NCBI GenBank assembly: GCA_013815345.1
Contig: JACDGK010000001.1
Location: forward strand, 102,434-166,433
DNA from: Patescibacteria group bacterium
Lineage (GTDB): Bacteria; Patescibacteriota; Minisyncoccia; Phycocordibacterales; Phycocordibacteraceae
Reading direction: 5' to 3'
DNA: 64,000 bases
Positions 11,422-52,849 of the stretch are shown piece by piece (position 1 is the stretch's first letter; each line of letters begins with the position of its first letter). Both the position numbers and the translations under genes were made by a program. The notes under the pieces are model-generated. The model worked only from the letters and a program-made list of their open reading frames with translations, ran no database searches and had not been told where the DNA came from.

Positions 11422-11444
11422 AAATGCCGAATCTCCCAAATCGT

Positions 11445-11515
11445 GTTGCGGAGGCCGGAATCGAACCGACTGTTTCGTCCCGTATTTACTAGAGTTCGAT
11501 TCCGACCCGCATCAT
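11445..11515 (-). repeat. tRNA-like fragment: a direct repeat of the 3' 27 nt of the tRNA(CAU) gene at 16012, plus a 10-bp T-loop-like hairpin
   Basis: CGTGTTGCGGAGGCCGGAATCGAACCGAC here versus CGTGTTGCGGGGGCCGGAATCGAACCGGC at 16012-16040 (27 of 29 match). The 5' half does not fold into a D-arm or anticodon arm. GGAATCGAAC and GTTCGATTCC form a 10-bp hairpin. Confidence 0.5.
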
Positions 11516-15943: not shown

Positions 15944-16014
15944 GGTGAACGAGGGGCCGGTACTGTACTGGGTTTGATGCCTGTCGGTACTGGTTCCTCG
16001 TGTCACAACCGTGT

Positions 16015-16084
16015 TGCGGGGGCCGGAATCGAACCGGCGTCTGGAGGTTATGAGCCTCCCGAGGTACCTCTCCTCTACCCCGCT
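16015..16084 (-). tRNA. tRNA with a CAU anticodon (Met, fMet or Ile2; not resolved)
   Basis: Cloverleaf on the minus strand: D-arm GAGG-AGAGGTA-CCTC, anticodon arm GGAGG-CTCATAA-CCTCC, T-arm GCCGG-TTCGATT-CCGGC, acceptor GCGGGG/CCCCGC. CCA is not encoded. Base pair 1-72 is ambiguous (possible mismatch). Confidence 0.75.
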
Positions 16085-34605: not shown

Positions 34606-34692
34606 GGAGACGTGGCTGAGTGGTCGAAAGTACCTCACTGCTAACGAGGCAGGGGTTAACGCCCCTCGAGGGTTCGAATCCCTCCGTCTCCG
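34606..34692 (+). tRNA. tRNA-Ser (anticodon GCU)
   Basis: GGAGACG acceptor, D-arm, anticodon loop CUGCUAA, a long variable arm CAGGGGTTAACGCCCCTC, T-arm GAGGG-TTCGAAT-CCCTC, acceptor CGTCTCC, discriminator G. Confidence 0.9.
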
Positions 34693-36209
34693 CAGATAGA
34701 AACTTCGAGTTCGGACAGAGCCGTGCCGCAAAGCGGCGTGGCAGAATGGGCGGACAGAAAATCCCGCCGCGTAGCGGCGAATTGGCTCGGCGTGGGGAAT
34801 CCGAAATGCGGGGATTTGTCACGAACCGAAGGGTTCGTTCCGATTTTTTGCACGAATGATTTGATTTGGTACAAATCATCCGATTGAGACAAAAAATCGG
34901 CTTGTTTCATATCCAAAATCCATTCCCGCAGGGGTTCGACCCGATTCTTTCTCCCGCGTTCAAAATCTTTCTTTTTCTCTTGCAAAGCGGCGAGAGAGCG
35001 CATGAGCACGTCCTTGCGCTTCAAGTACATCTCTTTCGGTATATCGCCATCTAGGTACGCAGATACCAGCTTTTCCATGCGCTCCTCGCTCGCTTTGATA
35101 TTGTCGGAAAGATTTTGAACCTCGCTTTGCGACACCTCAACTTCCTCGCGCTCCCATTCTTTCACTTTCGCCAACATCCAATCCGTATAGCGATCGCAAA
35201 GCGAGATTGTTTGAAGCCGTGCCTTTATTTTGTCGGCAAGGTCGGCCTCGCGGACATACGGTTGCGAGCAGCGGCCGCGTTTCTTGGAACACCGATAGTA
35301 GCGATACTTCGTACCCCAGCGATTGACCGCCCACTGCGCGGAAATCATGCCGCCGCACTCGCCACAGCGGAATAGCCCGACAAGCGGAAAATCATGCTTC
35401 ACCTTGCGCGTGCGCGGCCGCTCCTTGCCCGCCACGACCTTCTGCACGGCTTCAAACAATGCGGGAGTTAGAATCGGCTCAAAGTTTCCATCAAACCATT
35501 CCTGACCGTGCTTCACGAATCCGATATACACGCGATGCGTCAAAAGCCGTTTGATGGAAACTTTGGCAAGTGGCGTTCCGTTTGAAGTCATCACATTCAA
35601 GTCCGCCAAAAATTGCGACAACGAAACGAGAGTATGCGACCCTTTGGCGTATTCTTCGTACGCGAGGCGCACGATACGCGCGTTCGTCGGATGCGGTTCA
35701 ATATTGCGAATACGCGGGTTATTTTGATAGCCAAAGGGTGCGCGATTGAGCCACTCGCCCCGACGCAATTTTTGGCGGACGCCGCGCTTGATATTTTCGG
35801 ACAGATTGTCGCTGTAATATTTAGATTGCCCGAACGCCACTTGCAACATAAATAGTCCCTGCGGGGTCGGTTCAAACCAAAATGTCGGGAAGCGCAAAGA
35901 CACCACCTTACGCGTGTCTACGGCGTATATGATGCGCCCGCCGTCAATGCTGTTGCGAGCCAATCTATCGGGATGCCACGCCAATATGCCCACGCCGTCC
36001 ATTGATTCAATGCGGGCCATCATTTCGCCGTACACCTCGCGCCCCGGTGTCTTTGCGCTTTTCGACTCTTGAAATTCCTCAAGAATTTCAAGATTTTCTT
36101 TACGCGCGATCTCCCGCAACTCAAACAGCTGCGCCTCGATGGACATGACTTGCCGGTCATCGTCCTCAGTGCTCTTACGCGCGTATAGAAAATATTTTGG
36201 CTTGTTCAT
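34656..36209 (-). CDS. large serine recombinase (resolvase/invertase catalytic domain, recombinase domain, zinc ribbon)
   Basis: N-terminal catalytic block YARKSTEDD...SIEAQ (Ser nucleophile), recombinase domain, Cys cluster CGECGG...C. The probable start is the Met at 36209, since the track's extra 33 N-terminal codons lie in the right IR. The frame runs through the left IR and stops only inside the antisense of the tRNA. Confidence 0.85.
   Translation of the reverse strand: MNKPKYFLYARKSTEDDDRQVMSIEAQLFELREIARKENLEILEEFQESKSAKTPGREVYGEMMARIESMDGVGILAWHPDRLARNSIDGGRIIYAVDTRKVVSLRFPTFWFEPTPQGLFMLQVAFGQSKYYSDNLSENIKRGVRQKLRRGEWLNRAPFGYQNNPRIRNIEPHPTNARIVRLAYEEYAKGSHTLVSLSQFLADLNVMTSNGTPLAKVSIKRLLTHRVYIGFVKHGQEWFDGNFEPILTPALFEAVQKVVAGKERPRTRKVKHDFPLVGLFRCGECGGMISAQWAVNRWGTKYRYYRCSKKRGRCSQPYVREADLADKIKARLQTISLCDRYTDWMLAKVKEWEREEVEVSQSEVQNLSDNIKASEERMEKLVSAYLDGDIPKEMYLKRKDVLMRSLAALQEKKKDFERGRKNRVEPLREWILDMKQADFLSQSDDLYQIKSFVQKIGTNPSVRDKSPHFGFPTPSQFAATRRDFLSAHSATPLCGTALSELEVSICGDGGIRTLEGR
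34689..34819. repeat. left 131-bp terminal inverted repeat (begins with CCGCA of the tRNA-Ser 3' end)
   Basis: Direct alignment with the reverse complement of 36234-36364. Confidence 0.85.
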
Positions 36210-36233
36210 ATTAGTTTTTGGATTGAAACAAGA

Positions 36234-36364
36234 GACAAATCCCCGCATTTCGGATTCCCCACGCCGAGCCAATTCGCCGCTTCGCGGCGGCATTTCCTGC
36301 CCGCCCATTCTGCCACGCCGCTTTGCGGCGCGGCTCTGTCCGAACTCGAAGTTTCTATCTGCGG
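36234..36364. repeat. right 131-bp terminal inverted repeat
   Basis: Reverse complement of 34689-34819. It produces mirrored spurious ORFs (36139..36375+ and 34478..34879-). Confidence 0.85.
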
Positions 36365-36587
36365 TGACATATTAGCCTTTGCTCGAACTCACTTCGCACG
36401 CGCCACGTGCGTGGTGGCTTGAGATTGAAGCGTACGCTCCGATCGCGTGGCGACTCTCTGAATCTCGCCACGCGCGGAGTACCGCGCGTCCGCCCTCTCT
36501 TTTGCCGTTTCCCCATTCTTATTTTTTTGCGGGGGGGGATTGAATTTGGAATGGACGGCAGAAACGAGAGATTGGGCTTAAATCTAA

Positions 36588-36629
36588 TAATCCCATTTTG
36601 GGATTATACCATAAAAGGATATATCCTTT
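36588..36629 (+). promoter_or_regulatory. two perfect palindromes upstream of the C-protein gene (candidate C-boxes/operators)
   Basis: TAATCCCATTTTGGGATTA and AAGGATATATCCTT lie immediately upstream of the XRE gene start at 36636. Confidence 0.4.
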
Positions 36630-36635
36630 ATCCAC

Positions 36636-36857
36636 ATGAGCAAGTCCGTTTTCTCGAAAGACTATAAAGAAATCATAGAACGCTTGAAAACGGCGCGTAT
36701 TGAGGCTGGACTTGCACAGCAGGCGGTTGCGGACAAACTCGGTAAACCCCAATCTTTTATCTCAAAAATTGAATCCGGCGAAAGACGGCTTGATGTGGCG
36801 GAGATCAAAAAGTTTTCCGTAATCTACAAAAAAGATGTTTCCTTTTTCATAAAGTGA
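36636..36857 (+). CDS. XRE-family HTH regulator (restriction-modification controller-protein-like)
   Basis: 73 aa. HTH QQAVADKLGKPQSFISKIESGER. It directly precedes the nuclease gene. Confidence 0.75.
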   Translation: MSKSVFSKDYKEIIERLKTARIEAGLAQQAVADKLGKPQSFISKIESGERRLDVAEIKKFSVIYKKDVSFFIK

Positions 36858-36858
36858 T

Positions 36859-37473
36859 ATGGCTAAGAAGGTAACCAATCATCCAAAAACAAGCAAAGGA
36901 GTAGTTTGGCAAAAACTTCTCGACGCTCTTTATGCTGATATCGGCAATGTCGTTTCGAACCAGAAACTTATAAAAGTTTCTGGACAACACAACTATGCTC
37001 GTCGTGTAAGAGAATTACGAGCAGAGGGTTGGGATATTGTTTATAGCGCAAGCCCAACTGGATATATTTTGCGTTCAACTAATAAAACCGCCAAAAACGC
37101 TGATGTTTATATCAATTTTAAATTAAGACAAAAGATTTTAGAAAGGGATCAATATATTTGTCAGCTCTGTGGACATAGGGCGAATGAAAAATACGCTGAT
37201 GGTGAATCAGTAAAGCTTGAAGTTGACCACATCCTTCCTCTCAAACAAGGCGGGAAAACTGTTGAGGAAAACCTTTGGACTTTATGTACTCGTTGTAATG
37301 CTGGGAAGAAATCACTTTTGGATTATCCCGAAACGGTTAAAAATAGGATAATCTCGGTTAATCTTCCAGATGATATAAGAGGAAAACTAAGCGAGTTGTC
37401 TCTCAAGAGGGGTGAGACCATCAACAGCCTCATTTTGGACGCTATACGCAGAGGGATTAAGAAATTGAAATAA
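36859..37473 (+). CDS. HNH-family restriction endonuclease
   Basis: HNH motif CQLCGH...EVDHILP...GG...N...LCTRCN. Starts 2 nt after the C-protein stop. Confidence 0.8.
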   Translation: MAKKVTNHPKTSKGVVWQKLLDALYADIGNVVSNQKLIKVSGQHNYARRVRELRAEGWDIVYSASPTGYILRSTNKTAKNADVYINFKLRQKILERDQYICQLCGHRANEKYADGESVKLEVDHILPLKQGGKTVEENLWTLCTRCNAGKKSLLDYPETVKNRIISVNLPDDIRGKLSELSLKRGETINSLILDAIRRGIKKLK

Positions 37474-38487
37474 TTCTTTTCCTACAGCAAGGGCCAAACG
37501 GCACGGCACGGCGTTACCGATTTGTTTGGCGACTTGGACATTTGAACCCACGAAAACATAATCATCGGGAAATGTTTGTAATCGTGCCGCCTCTCGAATT
37601 GTTATAGGTCTGTGCGCTTCAGGATGCAGATAACAACCTTTCTCCGGTTTAAAAAATTCGGTTCTGATAGTGAGAGATGGTTTATCCCATTCCAATCTAC
37701 CGAAGACATCCGTGGAGCCAGTCTTTTTCCGCTTCCAACAGTCAGGTGTCAATTCCAAAGGCAAATCAAATCTATTGCCTCCAGCCGGAATTGATTTGTA
37801 TCTCTTTAAAGACGTGGGGGTAGGGTTTCTTCCAATGTGCCAATCTTTTCCGGTTGGTTCTAATGGCAAGTCTGCGATCGCATCTTTGACGGTAGCCCAA
37901 GTCTGTAGATGGGCGTTTAAAAGATTAAAATTATCAGCAGAAGTATGTGTTGGTTGAGGGTGATTAGGTATTCCAATCCTACTGCCAAAGATGATGGCCC
38001 GCTTTCGTTTTTGTGGAACTCCGTATTCGACGGCATGTAAGACTTTTTCTCTTACTTCGTATCCTAAATCCTCCGCCATTTTCTTTATGCTGGGGAATTC
38101 ATCACTTGTCAGGAGTTGGGGGACATTTTCCATCAAAAACACCTTCGGTTTAAAGAAAGCAACGAAGCGCATATATTCTCGCCACATTTGATTACGAGGG
38201 TCGTCCTTTTTTTGTTTGCCCAACCGACTGAAACCCTGACATGGCGGCCCCCCTACAATTAAATCAACTGTCCTAGTTCCAATTCGTTTTGAAAACTCTT
38301 CTAAATCCACGGATGTAATATCTCCTTCATGCACAAGCATGTCTTTATGGTTTGCGCGTAAGGTTTCGCAGCTCCAATGATCCCAATCAGTTGCAGCAAG
38401 GGGTTTAAATCCGGCTTGCTGAATTCCGATAGACAAGCCGCCAGCTCCAGCAAACAAGTCAATGAAAGTTGGTTTTTTGTTGCTCAT
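37387..38487 (-). CDS. DNA (cytosine-5)-methyltransferase
   Basis: Motif I FIDLFAGAGG, motif IV GGPPCQGFS, motif VI ENV, motif VIII QKRKRAII. Convergent with the nuclease gene, with an 87-nt 3' overlap. Confidence 0.9.
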   Translation of the reverse strand: MSNKKPTFIDLFAGAGGLSIGIQQAGFKPLAATDWDHWSCETLRANHKDMLVHEGDITSVDLEEFSKRIGTRTVDLIVGGPPCQGFSRLGKQKKDDPRNQMWREYMRFVAFFKPKVFLMENVPQLLTSDEFPSIKKMAEDLGYEVREKVLHAVEYGVPQKRKRAIIFGSRIGIPNHPQPTHTSADNFNLLNAHLQTWATVKDAIADLPLEPTGKDWHIGRNPTPTSLKRYKSIPAGGNRFDLPLELTPDCWKRKKTGSTDVFGRLEWDKPSLTIRTEFFKPEKGCYLHPEAHRPITIREAARLQTFPDDYVFVGSNVQVAKQIGNAVPCRLALAVGKELFQFLNPSAYSVQNEAVDGLTPLERQLA

Positions 38488-38514: not shown

Positions 38515-38805
38515 TTAAAATTCACTCCTAAGTACACCGACGACCTTTCCTTGTATTTCCACATTAGTTTCATAAAAAGGCTTCATTGTATGGTTTGCCG
38601 GAACAAGTTTGATCCGATTTTTCTCTCTATAAATCTTTTTTAGCGTAACTTCATTTCTGTCCGGCATATACGCGACTGCTTTTTCTCCATCATCAACAGT
38701 CGGCTGTTCTCGCACTATCACAATATCGCCATCCGATATTCCTTCTTCAATCATACTTCTTCCAGATACCTTGAGTGCGTAGTGATTAAACCCTCGCGAA
38801 AGCAT
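38515..38805 (-). CDS. S24-family peptidase domain protein (LexA C-terminal/UmuD'-like) lacking a DNA-binding domain
   Basis: Ser-Lys dyad context KVSGRSM...GDIVIV...K. The in-frame sequence upstream (..PAGGPIEAIRDPEPIEV..) looks like a LexA/UmuD cleavage-site region but has no start codon. Confidence 0.7.
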   Translation of the reverse strand: MLSRGFNHYALKVSGRSMIEEGISDGDIVIVREQPTVDDGEKAVAYMPDRNEVTLKKIYREKNRIKLVPANHTMKPFYETNVEIQGKVVGVLRSEF

Positions 38806-39282: not shown

Positions 39283-39639
39283 CTATAAAGCGTACTCTTT
39301 CACCCTTGCTAATAAGTCATTCATTTCAAAAGGTTTTGTCATGAATGCATCAGCCCCTGCCGCTCGCGCGGAATCTTCAACATCACGGCTAGCAGAAATC
39401 ATTACGATCGGAATATGCTTTGTTGATTTATTTGCTTTAAGTTTTTTACATATTTTCTTGCCATCTTGACCTGACATCCAAATATCTAGAAGCAGAAGAT
39501 CCGGTAATTGCTCTATCATTTCCTTAACCGTTACACCTTCAGCCGTGGTCTGTACCTCATACCCTTCAAGCTCTAGGAGCATTTTTGTGGCATCCAGAAT
39601 GGCTAGGTCATCATCGGCAAGTAGTATCTTTTTAGCCAT
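39283..39639 (-). CDS. single-domain response regulator (receiver only)
   Basis: DDD, LLLLDIWMSG, MIS, K motifs. 118 aa. Confidence 0.85.
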   Translation of the reverse strand: MAKKILLADDDLAILDATKMLLELEGYEVQTTAEGVTVKEMIEQLPDLLLLDIWMSGQDGKKICKKLKANKSTKHIPIVMISASRDVEDSARAAGADAFMTKPFEMNDLLARVKEYAL

Positions 39640-39643
39640 AGGT

Positions 39644-41719
39644 TTATGCGTGTATCGCTTTCTTTATCGGGATACTAAAAGAAAAAGTCGAACCTTCTCC
39701 TTTGACGCTTTCGACCCAGATCTTACCCACTTCCCGCTTTACGATCTCACTTGAAATGTATAGACCAAGTCCGAGACCCGGGAAAGTCTCGCTTGTAGGC
39801 CCATCGACTCGGAAAAATTGCTCAAAGACCTGATCGATATTCTCTTTGGCGATGCCTAATCCGAAATCCTGAACGGAAAGAGTCGTCACTTTGCCCTTAG
39901 AGAAGGTTGAAACAATAATTTTCTTACCATTTGGGGAGTACTTTATTGCGTTTGTAATAAAATTCGTCAGAACTTGTCCCAGCCTTTCTCGGTCGCCATA
40001 TACTTTTTTCATTGAAGTGAGGACCACGATTATTTTATGTTTTTCTGACAATCGTTGCATTTCTTCCACTCTTTCGTTAACGAGTTCGTTAAAATCGAAA
40101 TAGTCTTCATGAAATTGCAATTGGCCGGAATTAATTTTGGTTACATCTAATAGATCGGCGATCAAGTCATTTAATCTGTTTATTTGAGTATCCATTTTAC
40201 TAAGCATTTCTGCCGCTTTGACGTCTCCTTTACTTTGAAAAATCTTCTCGAGGACTTGCCCATATGTCTTAATGCTCGTAACAGGAGTCTTGAGTTCATG
40301 CGATACAATACCTAGAAAACTGTCTTTCTGTTGCTCTAGTTCTTTTTGTTTCGTGATATCGCTTGCCGCACCAAACCACTCGATGATCTTTCCTTTCTTA
40401 TCAAGGATGGGTATAGCACGTGAAAATATCCATCCATACGTACCATCTACTTGCTTAATCTTGTATTCCAATTGGAAAAAGCTTTTTGTACGTATAGACT
40501 TTTTAATAGCCTCCTTGACCTGCAATTTATCGTCCGGATGTGTATATTTTTCTAACCAATTAGTAATGGGCTCCTCCGTATCGATAAGAAAATTTTTACC
40601 ACGAAGTTCCTGCATCTCTTTCCAATCAGGACTCATCCGATATACGACCTCCGACGTTGCATTAACAAGGGCACGAAAACGCTCTTCACTCTTTCTTACT
40701 TTCTCATCAGATTCTTTGCGAGCTGTAATATCACTGTAATTTATGACAATGGCTTTTACGTCCGGATCCTCCAACAAATTGGACATTACCGACTCTACCC
40801 AAATAGCGTACCCACCTTTATGCATAATCTGATATTTGGTTCGTTCTACACTTCCTGGTTTTTTAAGCAATTTTTCGAAAAGTTTGGTAACTAATTTTCG
40901 TTCATTGGGTGGCACTAATTCGAAAGGATTAGACAATTTTTTAAACTCTTCAGGTGTATAACCCATAACCTTCTTTGTCGACTCACTGGCGTGCAGGACC
41001 TTTCCTTTTCTGTCCACCAGAGCAATAGCATCTGCGTTTTTTTCAGTCAATACTCTAAATCGTTTTTCAGAAGAAGTTATTTCTTCCATAAAAAGATTGT
41101 GGTACGTGAATGCTATTTTCGAAGATAATATGTCGCAATAGCTGCCGATGATCTGGCTAAATTCGAATAAGTCTTGGGTGGAAAGTCCTTTGAGCAAACC
41201 TGTTTCTTCTAGTTTCTTCCAAATTGCTTGCTTCAAAAAAATGGTTCCATCGACCGCTTCCTCTATGGTAAGGCCATCCTTGTTCGCATCTGTTGCGACT
41301 TCTATGCCAAGATCCTGGAAGATTTTAGTCCCTTTTTCGAAATCATCAAGATTATTCGCAATGGCTCTAATCATCTTGGTATGAATCTTCCTATACTTAG
41401 TGACATGTTCTTTAGGCAGAGAATCGCCACCGATAAGATGCGTATGCTGGGAAGTAGCCGATGTTTGTATGGCGATCTCATTCGCCTTAAGAAGTTGTTT
41501 TATCTTGGTAAATTTTTTTTGCTCCTCTTTAATGCTTGGATTTGAGGTCAATTTGGACAATGCTTCTCTGGTAAATCGCCAATCGCCACGAGAACCGATC
41601 TTTACTCCATTAAGCTGGTTGGTTTTTGCCCACTTGCGTATAGTCGCAGGATTCACACCCAAAAAAGCTGCTGAGCGCTGAACATTAAGTAGCTTTGGTT
41701 CTATTTTATTTATTGACAT
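39644..41719 (-). CDS. sensor histidine kinase with an N-terminal excisionase/MerR-like HTH and tandem PAS domains
   Basis: HTH AAFLGVNPATIRKWAK, PAS repeats, H-box SHELKTPVTSI, HATPase G-boxes DFGLGI and GLGLYI. 691 aa. Confidence 0.9.
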   Translation of the reverse strand: MSINKIEPKLLNVQRSAAFLGVNPATIRKWAKTNQLNGVKIGSRGDWRFTREALSKLTSNPSIKEEQKKFTKIKQLLKANEIAIQTSATSQHTHLIGGDSLPKEHVTKYRKIHTKMIRAIANNLDDFEKGTKIFQDLGIEVATDANKDGLTIEEAVDGTIFLKQAIWKKLEETGLLKGLSTQDLFEFSQIIGSYCDILSSKIAFTYHNLFMEEITSSEKRFRVLTEKNADAIALVDRKGKVLHASESTKKVMGYTPEEFKKLSNPFELVPPNERKLVTKLFEKLLKKPGSVERTKYQIMHKGGYAIWVESVMSNLLEDPDVKAIVINYSDITARKESDEKVRKSEERFRALVNATSEVVYRMSPDWKEMQELRGKNFLIDTEEPITNWLEKYTHPDDKLQVKEAIKKSIRTKSFFQLEYKIKQVDGTYGWIFSRAIPILDKKGKIIEWFGAASDITKQKELEQQKDSFLGIVSHELKTPVTSIKTYGQVLEKIFQSKGDVKAAEMLSKMDTQINRLNDLIADLLDVTKINSGQLQFHEDYFDFNELVNERVEEMQRLSEKHKIIVVLTSMKKVYGDRERLGQVLTNFITNAIKYSPNGKKIIVSTFSKGKVTTLSVQDFGLGIAKENIDQVFEQFFRVDGPTSETFPGLGLGLYISSEIVKREVGKIWVESVKGEGSTFSFSIPIKKAIHA

Positions 41720-49084: not shown

Positions 49085-49158
49085 CCATCCTTAGCTCAGT
49101 TGGTTAGAGCATCGAGCTTATACCTCGAGGGTCCCTGGTTCGAGTCCAGGAGGATGGA
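49085..49158 (+). tRNA. tRNA-Ile with a UAU anticodon
   Basis: CCATCCT acceptor, D-arm GCTC-AGTTGGTTA-GAGC, anticodon arm TCGAG-CTTATAC-CTCGA, T-arm CCTGG-TTCGAGT-CCAGG, discriminator A. Confidence 0.8.
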
Positions 49159-49182
49159 CTACGAAAGTGACGTGTGTGAAAA

Positions 49183-52432: not shown

Positions 52433-52849
52433 GGGGGTGACCGGTTTTGACGGTCTGCCCTTTGAGAAACGTGCGACGCGATGGAATCTTGCTGACCATC
52501 TGAATCTCGCAAGCACCCAATACCTGCCGACAAAACTGTTGCAGGCGCAAAGGTATCTCCGTACTTTACGGCAAAGAACTTTGCGTTCGCTTACGTGTAA
52601 GCTTGAGCCTCGGCTCGTTTAGCGTAACGACGTTCACTCTTCCCGGGTTCTCATAGCCGGTCGAATGGGCGAAATCTTCTATGGGATCGATAGCCGTGCG
52701 CCCACACGTGCTGTTCAGACTTCGGGCGTAGACAGAAAAGGTTTCGCTGACATTTCTACTTTTCTGTTGAAACACTAATAGCAGCTACGTGTCGTAGACT
52801 CGTTCTCAAAGCCAGATTCGGACGGGGGATCATACCCCCCACCTCCACC
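52433..52849 (+). ncRNA. ssrA: tmRNA (transfer-messenger RNA)
   Basis: It starts immediately 3' of smpB. 5' GGGGGTGACCGG... pairs with 3' ...CCCCCCACCTCCACC. The acceptor has a G3:U70 wobble. The T-arm-like stem is GGGGG-ATCATAC-CCCCC. Confidence 0.75.

Follow-up and report, generated by a model that had tools for sequence, protein, structure and literature searches.

The 64,000-nt stretch of contig JACDGK010000001.1 from a Patescibacteria group bacterium, referred to here as the window, contains a gene for a large serine recombinase (LSR) that lies between two long inverted arms (B' and B) at the 3' end of the tRNA-Ser(GCU) gene. Arm B adjoins a conserved non-coding region that is designated A. 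The coordinates of these features are listed in Table 1. The arm pair comprises 135 nt, of which 129 are complementary (96%), and 1413 nt lie between the arms according to a repeat finder. Direct comparison gave six mismatches, one of which (34689/36365) falls within the 4 nt of the tRNA acceptor end or of the A end, outside the arm proper. The B/B' pair is the sole inverted repeat of at least 30 nt that the repeat finder identified across the window, and a 23-nt probe from the arm end has two exact occurrences where none is expected by chance. A preliminary description of this locus had reported the inverted repeats and their overlap with tRNA-Ser, and both are confirmed with coordinates that differ by a few nucleotides. 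However, it had recorded only one of two nested pairs of repeats and had missed the A region of approximately 200 nt.

The recombinase gene and tRNA-Ser(GCU) are convergent. The final ~45 codons of the recombinase gene fall in arm B'. The reading frame is closed by a stop codon at 34656-34658, 38 nt into the antisense of tRNA-Ser; the element itself supplies no stop. The protein length of about 517 residues, the arm-encoded end, and the position of the stop codon all stand as first described. The recombinase has the Pfam domains PF00239 Resolvase (2e-21, residues 8-154), PF07508 Recombinase (5e-11), and PF13408 Zn_ribbon_recom (9e-12). Across an alignment of 11 sequences with identities as low as 41%, both the YARKST catalytic motif and the zinc-ribbon cysteines are invariant. 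LSRs have a coiled-coil motif within the zinc domain that governs directionality; the corresponding region of residues ~340-440 is present, and the protein can be aligned with SPbeta integrase up to residue 417. SPbeta integrase is the closest solved structure, at an E-value of only 6.6e-16, and the matches to CcrB and XisF are far below the family cut-offs. Judged by its domains and motifs, the recombinase is a distant member of the LSRs. The identical NCBI protein is P0002, 'recombinase family protein [Patescibacteria group bacterium]'.

The core at site 1, CCGCA, consists of the last two acceptor-stem nucleotides, the discriminator G, and CA. The tRNA-Ser(GCU) is called intact by ARAGORN and Rfam, with its acceptor end and discriminator restored by the core, and its 3' end supplies the half of the left attachment site that is chromosomal (B-type). 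Arm B' carries the conserved site motif GAAACTTC at 34701-34708, which reads away from the core. Rfam searches of the window locus and of a complete relative returned the tRNA only, and the weak sX4 and plastid matches overlap the tRNA.

The A region contains GC-rich hairpins (fold z=-3.9). An nhmmer profile of 24 A copies matched the window at 36353-36567 (E=8e-31) and nowhere else. A second copy (A', with the attR half-site) is absent from the 64-kb window according to the repeat finder, a degenerate motif search (3 mismatches), low-stringency BLAST, and nhmmer. The direct repeat of the core at the far end, which is a trait of tRNA islands, is missing in the window and is seen at the A'-host junction in about 24 relatives.

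Table 1. Coordinates of the features at the recombinase locus of the window.
Feature	Coordinates	Strand	Remarks
tRNA-Ser(GCU)	34606-34693	+	ARAGORN; Rfam RF00005 at 34606-34692, 55.8 bits
LSR open reading frame (ORF), 517 aa	34656-36209	-	ATG at 36207-36209
Left arm B'	34686-34820		Inverted pair of right arm; overlaps last 8 nt of tRNA-Ser
Core CCGCA at tRNA-B' junction (site 1, attL-like)	34690-34694	+	Junction alignment
Right arm B	36234-36368		Inverted copy of B'; ends 24 nt upstream of recombinase ATG
Core at A-B junction (site 2)	36360-36364	-	TGCGG on + strand, CCGCA on recombinase strand; inverted relative to site 1
A region, conserved non-coding	36365-36572	-	BLAST 78-89% identity to other loci
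Proximal half-site AGTTCGAGCAAAGGCTAATATGTC in A	36366-36389		Motif search: one site in window
Distal long hairpin of A, C-rich loop	~36495-36570
Perfect 16-nt palindrome AAAGGATATATCCTTT	36614-36629		Just upstream of small helix-turn-helix (HTH) gene
Small HTH_3 (XRE-type) gene	36636-36857	+	Pfam HTH_3 4e-12; divergent from recombinase
HNH endonuclease	36859-37473	+	Pfam HNH 4.6e-11
C5 cytosine methyltransferase	37387-38487	-	Pfam DNA_methylase 4e-74

Related loci and proposed attachment sites

A species-level scan with one genome per species gave at least 544 confirmed matching stretches. Eighty loci were fetched and self-compared, and an arm pair was found at the equivalent position in 64 of them. 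Recombinase homologues number in the thousands at 60-90% identity, and all the named ones come from Patescibacteria or candidate phyla radiation lineages. The proteins of the 64 loci are 60-90% identical to the window recombinase. Their arms have a median length of 131 nt (range 107-149) and a median identity of 100%, with 52 of the 64 pairs at or above 97%. The 3' arm adjoins the convergent 3' end of a tRNA or transfer-messenger RNA (tmRNA) gene in 58 of the 64 loci, where 17 tRNA species and tmRNA are represented. The recombinase ORF terminates beyond the arm, in the flanking DNA, in 61 of the 64. The arm-encoded protein tail shows poor conservation apart from EVSxC, the translation of the conserved DNA motif GAAGTTTC..TG. 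An LSR on a metagenome contig that is 39% identical has the same layout at comF-tRNA-Ser(GCU), with arms of 120 nt and 275 nt at 99-100% identity, which argues that the architecture is old and constrained.

A second inverted pair, A'/A, adjoins the B/B' pair in about 24 loci. The copies are 160-300 nt long and ~99-100% identical, and A' is placed 1-5 kb beyond A. The full unit reads host, A', cargo, A, B, recombinase, B', and tRNA, and the elements measure 3-8 kb. A is attached to the cassette (B, recombinase, and B') in every locus of sufficient extent. Cassettes are located only at the ends of tRNA/tmRNA genes or within tandem arrays, and none is scattered or present in multiple copies at high identity within a genome. 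Locus L008 retains a decayed A' fragment and shows how copies with a solitary A arise.

The cargo is extremely variable: 63 protein clusters were identified, nearly all of them singletons, and elements with 92% identical A-B-recombinase modules carry unrelated cargo. Among the examples are beta-helix/PKD surface proteins, restriction-modification (R-M) systems, a GTP-cyclohydrolase/methyltransferase fusion, an aromatic amino-acid lyase, a cytochrome-d1-like protein, and a GNAT protein paired with an HTH protein, together with an AAA_15 ATPase and HEPN-like proteins as defence candidates. Homologues of the small HTH_3 gene stand next to A, before unrelated cargo, in L009, L017, L019, L030, L032, L038, L068, L096, L099, and L112-L115, and R-M cargo is found at the equivalent position in L099 and L113. 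The polarity of the cargo is nearly fixed, with the HTH gene beside A and the D element (described below) beside A'. The search of viral contigs found no relatives by single-protein query, and an alignment query gave five distant or truncated matches with no informative structure. By these searches, the family is not visibly phage-borne.

Most complete units have a non-coding D element of ~330 nt just inside A', which is absent from the window and has no match in Rfam. Copies were identified at L007:3842-4172, L083:11496-11838, and L008:1935-2278, in L059 (three copies), and also in L018, L006, L029, L067, L012, L015, L071, and L017. The D copies of L007 and L083 are 84% identical, though their recombinases are 39% identical. 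The 3' part of D (D3) contains a hairpin (CCCCGCCGTTTT..loop ATTAT..AAAACGGCGGGG) in which compensatory changes are seen, and the C-rich run CCCCACCCACCC lies ahead of it. Between the cargo genes of L059, D is repeated in a manner resembling cassette boundaries. D3 is a repeated hairpin at cassette ends.

The A regions are mosaic. The proximal ~55 nt track the recombinase lineage, and the type of the distal hairpin is common to other lineages. This hairpin has a stem of ~25 bp and a loop of 30-45 nt. The loop is found in both orientations, since it holds GGAGGGGTGGGGGGAGGAG in L007, L019, and L028, and the complement in the window, L015, L038, and L068.

Junctions from about 60 loci were aligned. 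The tRNA-B', A-B, and A'-host junctions have a common core of 4-7 nt, in which the final two bases of the acceptor stem are followed by the discriminator and CA. The core co-varies with the end of the target: CCGCA for Ser, GCACA for Arg, Gly, and Leu, TCACA for Glu, CCACA for tmRNA, and GGACA for Lys. The cores at site 1 (tRNA-B) and site 3 (A-host) are direct, and the core at site 2 (A-B) is inverted. Because the pairwise sharing of flanks matches the products of site-specific recombination, the junction sequences indicate that tRNA-B behaves as attL, A-host as attR, and A-B as an intact inverted attP. Unlike in the usual integrated LSR elements, this intact inverted A-B site is retained in essentially every locus.

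The T-loop motif GGTTCG (GTTCG) in A lies 6 nt farther from the core than the T-loop GTTCGA of the tRNA in 48 of 48 loci, a comparison that concerns the left half-site only, as the right halves are not alike. It has been reported that the same zinc-domain motif of LSR sites is shifted 5 bp outward in attP relative to attB (PMC3783163). There is strong sequence-level support that A is the element-side (P-type) half and that the enzyme recognises the universal T-arm, which would explain the breadth of the tRNA targets. The consensus of the arm beside the core is.CaCA.A..gAAActTC in 61 loci. The B arm motif GAAACTTC lies 8-15 nt from the core and is followed by small hairpins with GAAA/UUCG-type loops.

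The layout is conserved among relatives, but target, cargo, orientation, and copy number vary, and the repeat was never found apart from the recombinase. Neither the invariable arrangement nor the widespread sequence like a miniature inverted-repeat transposable element unrelated to the recombinase, which the preliminary description had named as counter-evidence, is thus seen. Tandem arrays in the same orientation occur in L009, L018 (three recombinases), L118, and L119. Their junctions are of the A2-B1 type, as expected from a second element integrating into tRNA-B1. In 15-20 of 120 database homologues, A-type sequence rather than tRNA antisense encodes the C-terminal tail, and tandem arrays account for most of these cases.

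A flipped cassette was identified in L120, where tRNA-Ser(CGA) is on the same strand and immediately upstream of the recombinase and A' follows the gene. This cassette is 92-93% identical to those of L005 and L007, which are in form 1 at the same tRNA, with the flanks swapped. L116 and L121 have the same flipped configuration as L120. By count, 58 loci have the orientation of the window copy, which is included among them, and at least three are flipped. All nine contigs of one population (nine samples, k=141) have one orientation. The 3.9-kb contig L112 reads cargo, HTH, A, B, recombinase, B', and A', with a perfect repeat of 399 nt and no host flank, as predicted for a circle with two inverted attP sites.

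Empty sites are also found. A metagenome ComF scan gave eight distant relatives (ComF identity 30-46%) that keep the comF-tRNA-Ser(GCU) synteny but have unrelated DNA downstream of the tRNA; exact boundaries are not definable in them. The comparison with relatives that the preliminary description had proposed has yielded empty sites at this distance, and none in a close relative.

In a side observation, the segment L120:1722-3452 is chimeric. Its recombinase body and tRNA-side arm are like those of L007 (92%), and the other arm and A' are 98% identical to L020. This suggests an exchange between different elements within the arms or at their inner edge. The contigs L114 and L115 (ENA contigs with recombinase P0115, from two samples of one study) carry the same HTH-AAA-adh_short cargo, which is oriented oppositely with respect to the recombinase. 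This pair was considered as evidence for a switch and was dropped, as the A repeat (at least 168 nt) exceeds the assembler k of 141.

Proposed mechanism and alternative explanations

The explanation that we consider most probable, with reasonable though not high confidence, is that the cassette represents the integrase end of an integrative element that is driven by the LSR, inserted at tRNA/tmRNA 3' ends, and abundant in Patescibacteria. An integrative module was among the options first proposed, and the insertion at a tRNA 3' end together with the variable cargo of relatives agrees with it. On this reading of the junctions, a single attachment-site arm is present twice and makes up both 131-nt 'terminal repeats'. 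One copy would lie in the 3' coding end of the recombinase at attL, and the other in the retained attP upstream of the gene. The retained attP would sit between the recombinase gene and the cargo.

A productive pair would consist of one site with a tRNA left half (attB-type spacing) and one site with an A left half (attP-type spacing, 6 nt farther). Recombination between tRNA-B and A-host, which are direct, would release the unit as a circle that carries two attP copies in inverted orientation. Recombination between tRNA-B and the inverted A-B site would flip the recombinase cassette. Since the right halves are identical, the flip would regenerate the same two site types. It would leave the gene intact, swap its upstream DNA (A versus tRNA), and alter the last residues of the protein. 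Speculatively, the orientation bias might reflect one state that expresses the enzyme and another that silences it. We infer from the architecture that these reactions would be catalysed by the enzyme. The architecture itself, the core co-variation, the 6-nt offset, both orientations, the tandem arrays, and the empty sites were observed. The window copy is probably fixed and no longer excisable, because it is without A' (attR) and its arms are 4% diverged.

Two variants of the site arrangement were also considered. A circle with a palindromic site (A-A' as attP and B'-B as attB) was rejected, as it predicts the opposite core orientation at the host-A' junction and the Glu, tmRNA, and Lys cores are without a palindromic dinucleotide. 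The idea that the B arm mimics the end of the cognate tRNA in inverted form fits the Ser-type, not the acceptor part of the Glu-type, and it was not relied on.

Several points weigh against an LSR-driven integrative element of this kind. The two halves of the proposed attP are dissimilar, unlike those of classical attP sites. An LSR needs only ~25 bp per half-site, and the arm lengths of 131 nt and ~245 nt and their near-perfect identity beyond this need are unaccounted for; gene conversion, extra binding sites, or an RNA-level role are possible reasons. No recombination directionality factor (RDF) was identified, and no excision junction, circle junction, or close-relative empty site was seen. 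The ratio of 58 loci to at least three means that flipping is rare or strongly biased, and RecA-mediated recombination between the 131-nt arms could yield rare isomers without the LSR. The arms of L120 are only 87% identical to each other and one of them resembles a different element, which points to homologous exchange and not to a clean site-specific flip. Contig L112 could be a fold-back misassembly due to the repeat, and the opposite cargo orientations of L114 and L115 may be a real inversion or an arbitrary choice of the assembler.

A further reading, which we put forward tentatively, is that these elements represent a new operating mode of LSRs, with RDF-free reversible integration, excision, and inversion, a circle and a gene-capture platform at the tRNA, and targeting that is set by the core. 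The attP and attB would differ only in the left half, which is the tRNA T-arm in one and its mimic 6 nt farther out in the other. Each attP x attB event would regenerate attP-type and attB-type sites, hence reversibility without a directionality factor. The free form would be a circle similar to the yeast 2-micron plasmid with two inverted attP sites, and the integrated form would be a resident platform for gene capture and exchange in the ultra-small genomes of Patescibacteria, whose target could be re-programmed via the 5-nt core. We see a modest chance that such a mechanism, in which an LSR recombines reversibly and RDF-free on a gene-capture platform, is of a new kind.

It is unlikely that the second arm is a regulatory duplication only. 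The A-B site would then be an operator or decoy that represses the recombinase and the divergent cargo, or the 5' untranslated region would pair with the 3' end of the mRNA; the internal site would take part in no DNA rearrangement, and gene conversion would keep the arms identical. Tn3 resolvase represses itself by binding at res. The internal site at these loci is exactly between the divergent recombinase and HTH/cargo genes, the hairpins of the arms have GAAA/UUCG-type loops and fold better than shuffles (z=-3.9), and the orientation is almost invariant. However, a purely regulatory role leaves both the flipped isomers and the second full-length inverted A that brackets the cargo unaccounted for, and an operator does not need ~380 nt of perfect identity.

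The flipped isomers bring up the self-inverting switch that the preliminary description had suggested. We rate the chance as low that the cassette is a phase-variation switch that flips itself frequently and toggles its neighbours (the R-M genes or the cargo operon), as Hin does with flagellin. The recombinase gene does lie inside a segment bounded by inverted sites, both orientations are present among relatives, and R-M/defence-like cargo adjoins the segment. Inversion as such is partly supported by L120, L116, and L121. A balanced phase switch is not, since 58 of the 64 reference loci and all contigs of one population have one orientation. The arms are identical, and a flip alters only the upstream DNA and the last few residues of the recombinase. 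The cargo polarity is nearly fixed, and a sigma-70 promoter scan found sites no more numerous than in shuffles, with no outward promoter detected.

A stand-alone insertion sequence is very improbable. The B-recombinase-B' segment would be an autonomous transposon with 131-nt terminal inverted repeats and the LSR as its transposase, with A and the cargo as unrelated neighbours. It is true that the gene is framed by long near-perfect inverted repeats, that the ORF enters the repeat as in many insertion sequences, and that many database contigs are just 1.7-2.0 kb and hold the cassette alone. Contigs of this size are, however, expected from de Bruijn assembly at repeats longer than k, and all of them agree with the longer contigs. 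A accompanies the cassette wherever the locus extends far enough and co-evolves with it, and the cassette is confined to tRNA/tmRNA ends or tandem arrays. The end cores are inverted, and those of the Glu, tmRNA, and Lys types are not palindromic; a conservative serine recombinase acting on them could therefore invert the segment but not excise it. The recombinase-only insertion element of the preliminary description is given up on these grounds, as the cassette never occurs without A and its end cores are inverted.

An inverted repeat created by misassembly of a metagenome bin can be dismissed: repeats do break many assemblies and can give fold-back contigs, but the structure is found in hundreds of independent assemblies, including the closed or near-closed CP060229.1 and OY970382.1 and an 831-kb contig, and the arms of many loci differ by a few bases (six mismatches in the window).

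Comparison with known recombination systems

The LSRs of phages and integrative and conjugative elements (phiC31, Bxb1, A118/LI, and SPbeta SprA), Ccr of SCCmec, and XisF have the same resolvase, recombinase, and zinc-ribbon domains as the window recombinase. They are also alike in the site-specific insertion at a conserved host gene, the short common core, and the integrase gene at the end of the element, and in the element-side motif that lies about half a helical turn farther out (6 nt here and 5 bp in the literature). They differ in that the Patescibacteria element keeps a complete inverted attP when integrated. The arms here are duplicated over 131 and ~245 nt versus ~25 bp, and the attP halves are unlike. 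The last bases of many tRNAs and of tmRNA are targeted here, no RDF is evident, and the elements are 3-8 kb and absent from viral contigs.

Tycheposons of Prochlorococcus and other cargo islands at tRNA or tmRNA genes resemble the present elements in their small size, in the use of tRNA/tmRNA sites in very small genomes, and in variable accessory or defence cargo. Tycheposons also form tandem arrays with partial tRNA remnants. However, 910 of 937 tycheposons have tyrosine recombinases (bioRxiv 10.1101/2020.12.28.424599). They leave direct repeats of tRNA fragments, nested inverted repeats and a retained attP are not described for them, and the host belongs to another phylum.

The invertases Hin, Gin, Cin, and Pin share with the cassette a recombinase gene (Hin) within the segment bounded by inverted sites, where a flip leaves the gene intact. 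Hin-type invertases have ~190 aa and a C-terminal HTH, act on 26-bp sites with the help of an enhancer and of Fis, and serve to switch an outward promoter or the exons of a tail fibre. The present cassette differs from Hin and Gin in its LSR domain architecture, in having a tRNA end as one site, in its strong orientation bias, and in that nothing outside the cassette changes.

IS607, TnpX (Tn4451), and TndX (Tn5397) are alike in using a serine recombinase as the mobility enzyme, and a circular intermediate is expected. The elements of TnpX and TndX have short ends and loose targets. The present elements differ from all three in the strict tRNA-end target, the long nested repeats, and the inverted end cores. 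IS607 TnpA is small with an N-terminal HTH, and IS607 has no terminal inverted repeats and inserts at many sites (PMC6188088). In contrast, the window recombinase has an N-terminal catalytic domain, 517 aa, and the LSR domains, and tnpB is absent. The initial view that the locus is atypical for both phage-type LSR sites and IS607 is borne out.

The yeast 2-micron plasmid (FLP/FRT, 599-bp inverted repeats) is similar to the predicted circle, which would likewise be split by two long inverted repeats that hold short sites. One unique segment encodes the recombinase in both, and L112 shows the dumbbell topology. The two differ in that FLP is a tyrosine recombinase and the plasmid is autonomous and non-integrative; no replication function was found here, and the circle is predicted only. 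Integrons differ in their tyrosine recombinase IntI with attI and attC, and the likeness is limited to the cargo turnover beside a conserved module and to D3 at the cassette ends.

The family departs from the known LSRs, the tycheposons, and other tRNA-island elements in three respects: it retains an inverted attP, its long repeats are nested, and it mimics the T-arm. This architecture was not described in any text returned by full-text literature searches, and the element family is apparently undescribed. To our knowledge, the tiny genomes of Patescibacteria harbour few recognised mobile elements, and genetic tools for the phylum are lacking. The family is present in several hundred species representatives (at least 544 matches) with variable cargo, so it may be a main route of gene flux in the phylum. 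It would also provide a set of naturally occurring LSRs that all recognise the universal tRNA T-arm, with the specificity apparently set by a short core. The arrangement of the sites could make the LSR reaction reversible without an RDF, which bears on directionality control and on programmable integrases.

Cargo position and other features of the window

The HNH endonuclease and the C5 methyltransferase constitute a type II R-M module in the cargo position. The preliminary description had regarded the R-M genes as possible cargo, in agreement with their place in the variable-cargo position of relatives, with HTH_3 first. GC content is 0.38-0.43 over 37-42 kb versus ~0.49 in the flanks. The HTH/HNH/methylase block, and possibly the DNA to ~42 kb, would belong to the cargo of the element or would have been acquired later at this position.

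Upstream of the small HTH gene, the hairpin AATCCCATTTTGGGATT precedes the palindrome AAAGGATATATCCTTT. The palindrome with the hairpin looks like a candidate operator for the HTH (controller-type) protein. A truncated ORF with an S24 peptidase only lies at 38515-38805. The low-GC stretch (0.38-0.42) that follows the R-M genes encodes, at 39283-41719 on the minus strand, a PAS/HisKA/HATPase sensor kinase with an N-terminal excisionase-type HTH_17, and then a stand-alone receiver protein.

The tmRNA of the window is located at 52433-52849 (tag ADKTVAGAKVSPYFTAKNFAFAYV) and tRNA-Ile(UAU) at 49085-49159. In other genomes (L063 and L069), tmRNA is a target of the element family; no second cassette repeat was found in the window.

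A 30-nt direct repeat (93%) of the 3' end of tRNA-Met (16013-16084, minus strand) was identified at 11439-11468 and 16007-16036. The repeats bracket a 4.5-kb low-GC segment (0.36-0.40) that is without an integrase and contains genes for an archaeal-type AdoMet synthetase, a histidine phosphatase, and a dCMP-type deaminase, together with unknown ORFs. From this gene content and the flanking repeats, the segment resembles the remains of a tRNA island of the classical type that lacks an integrase.

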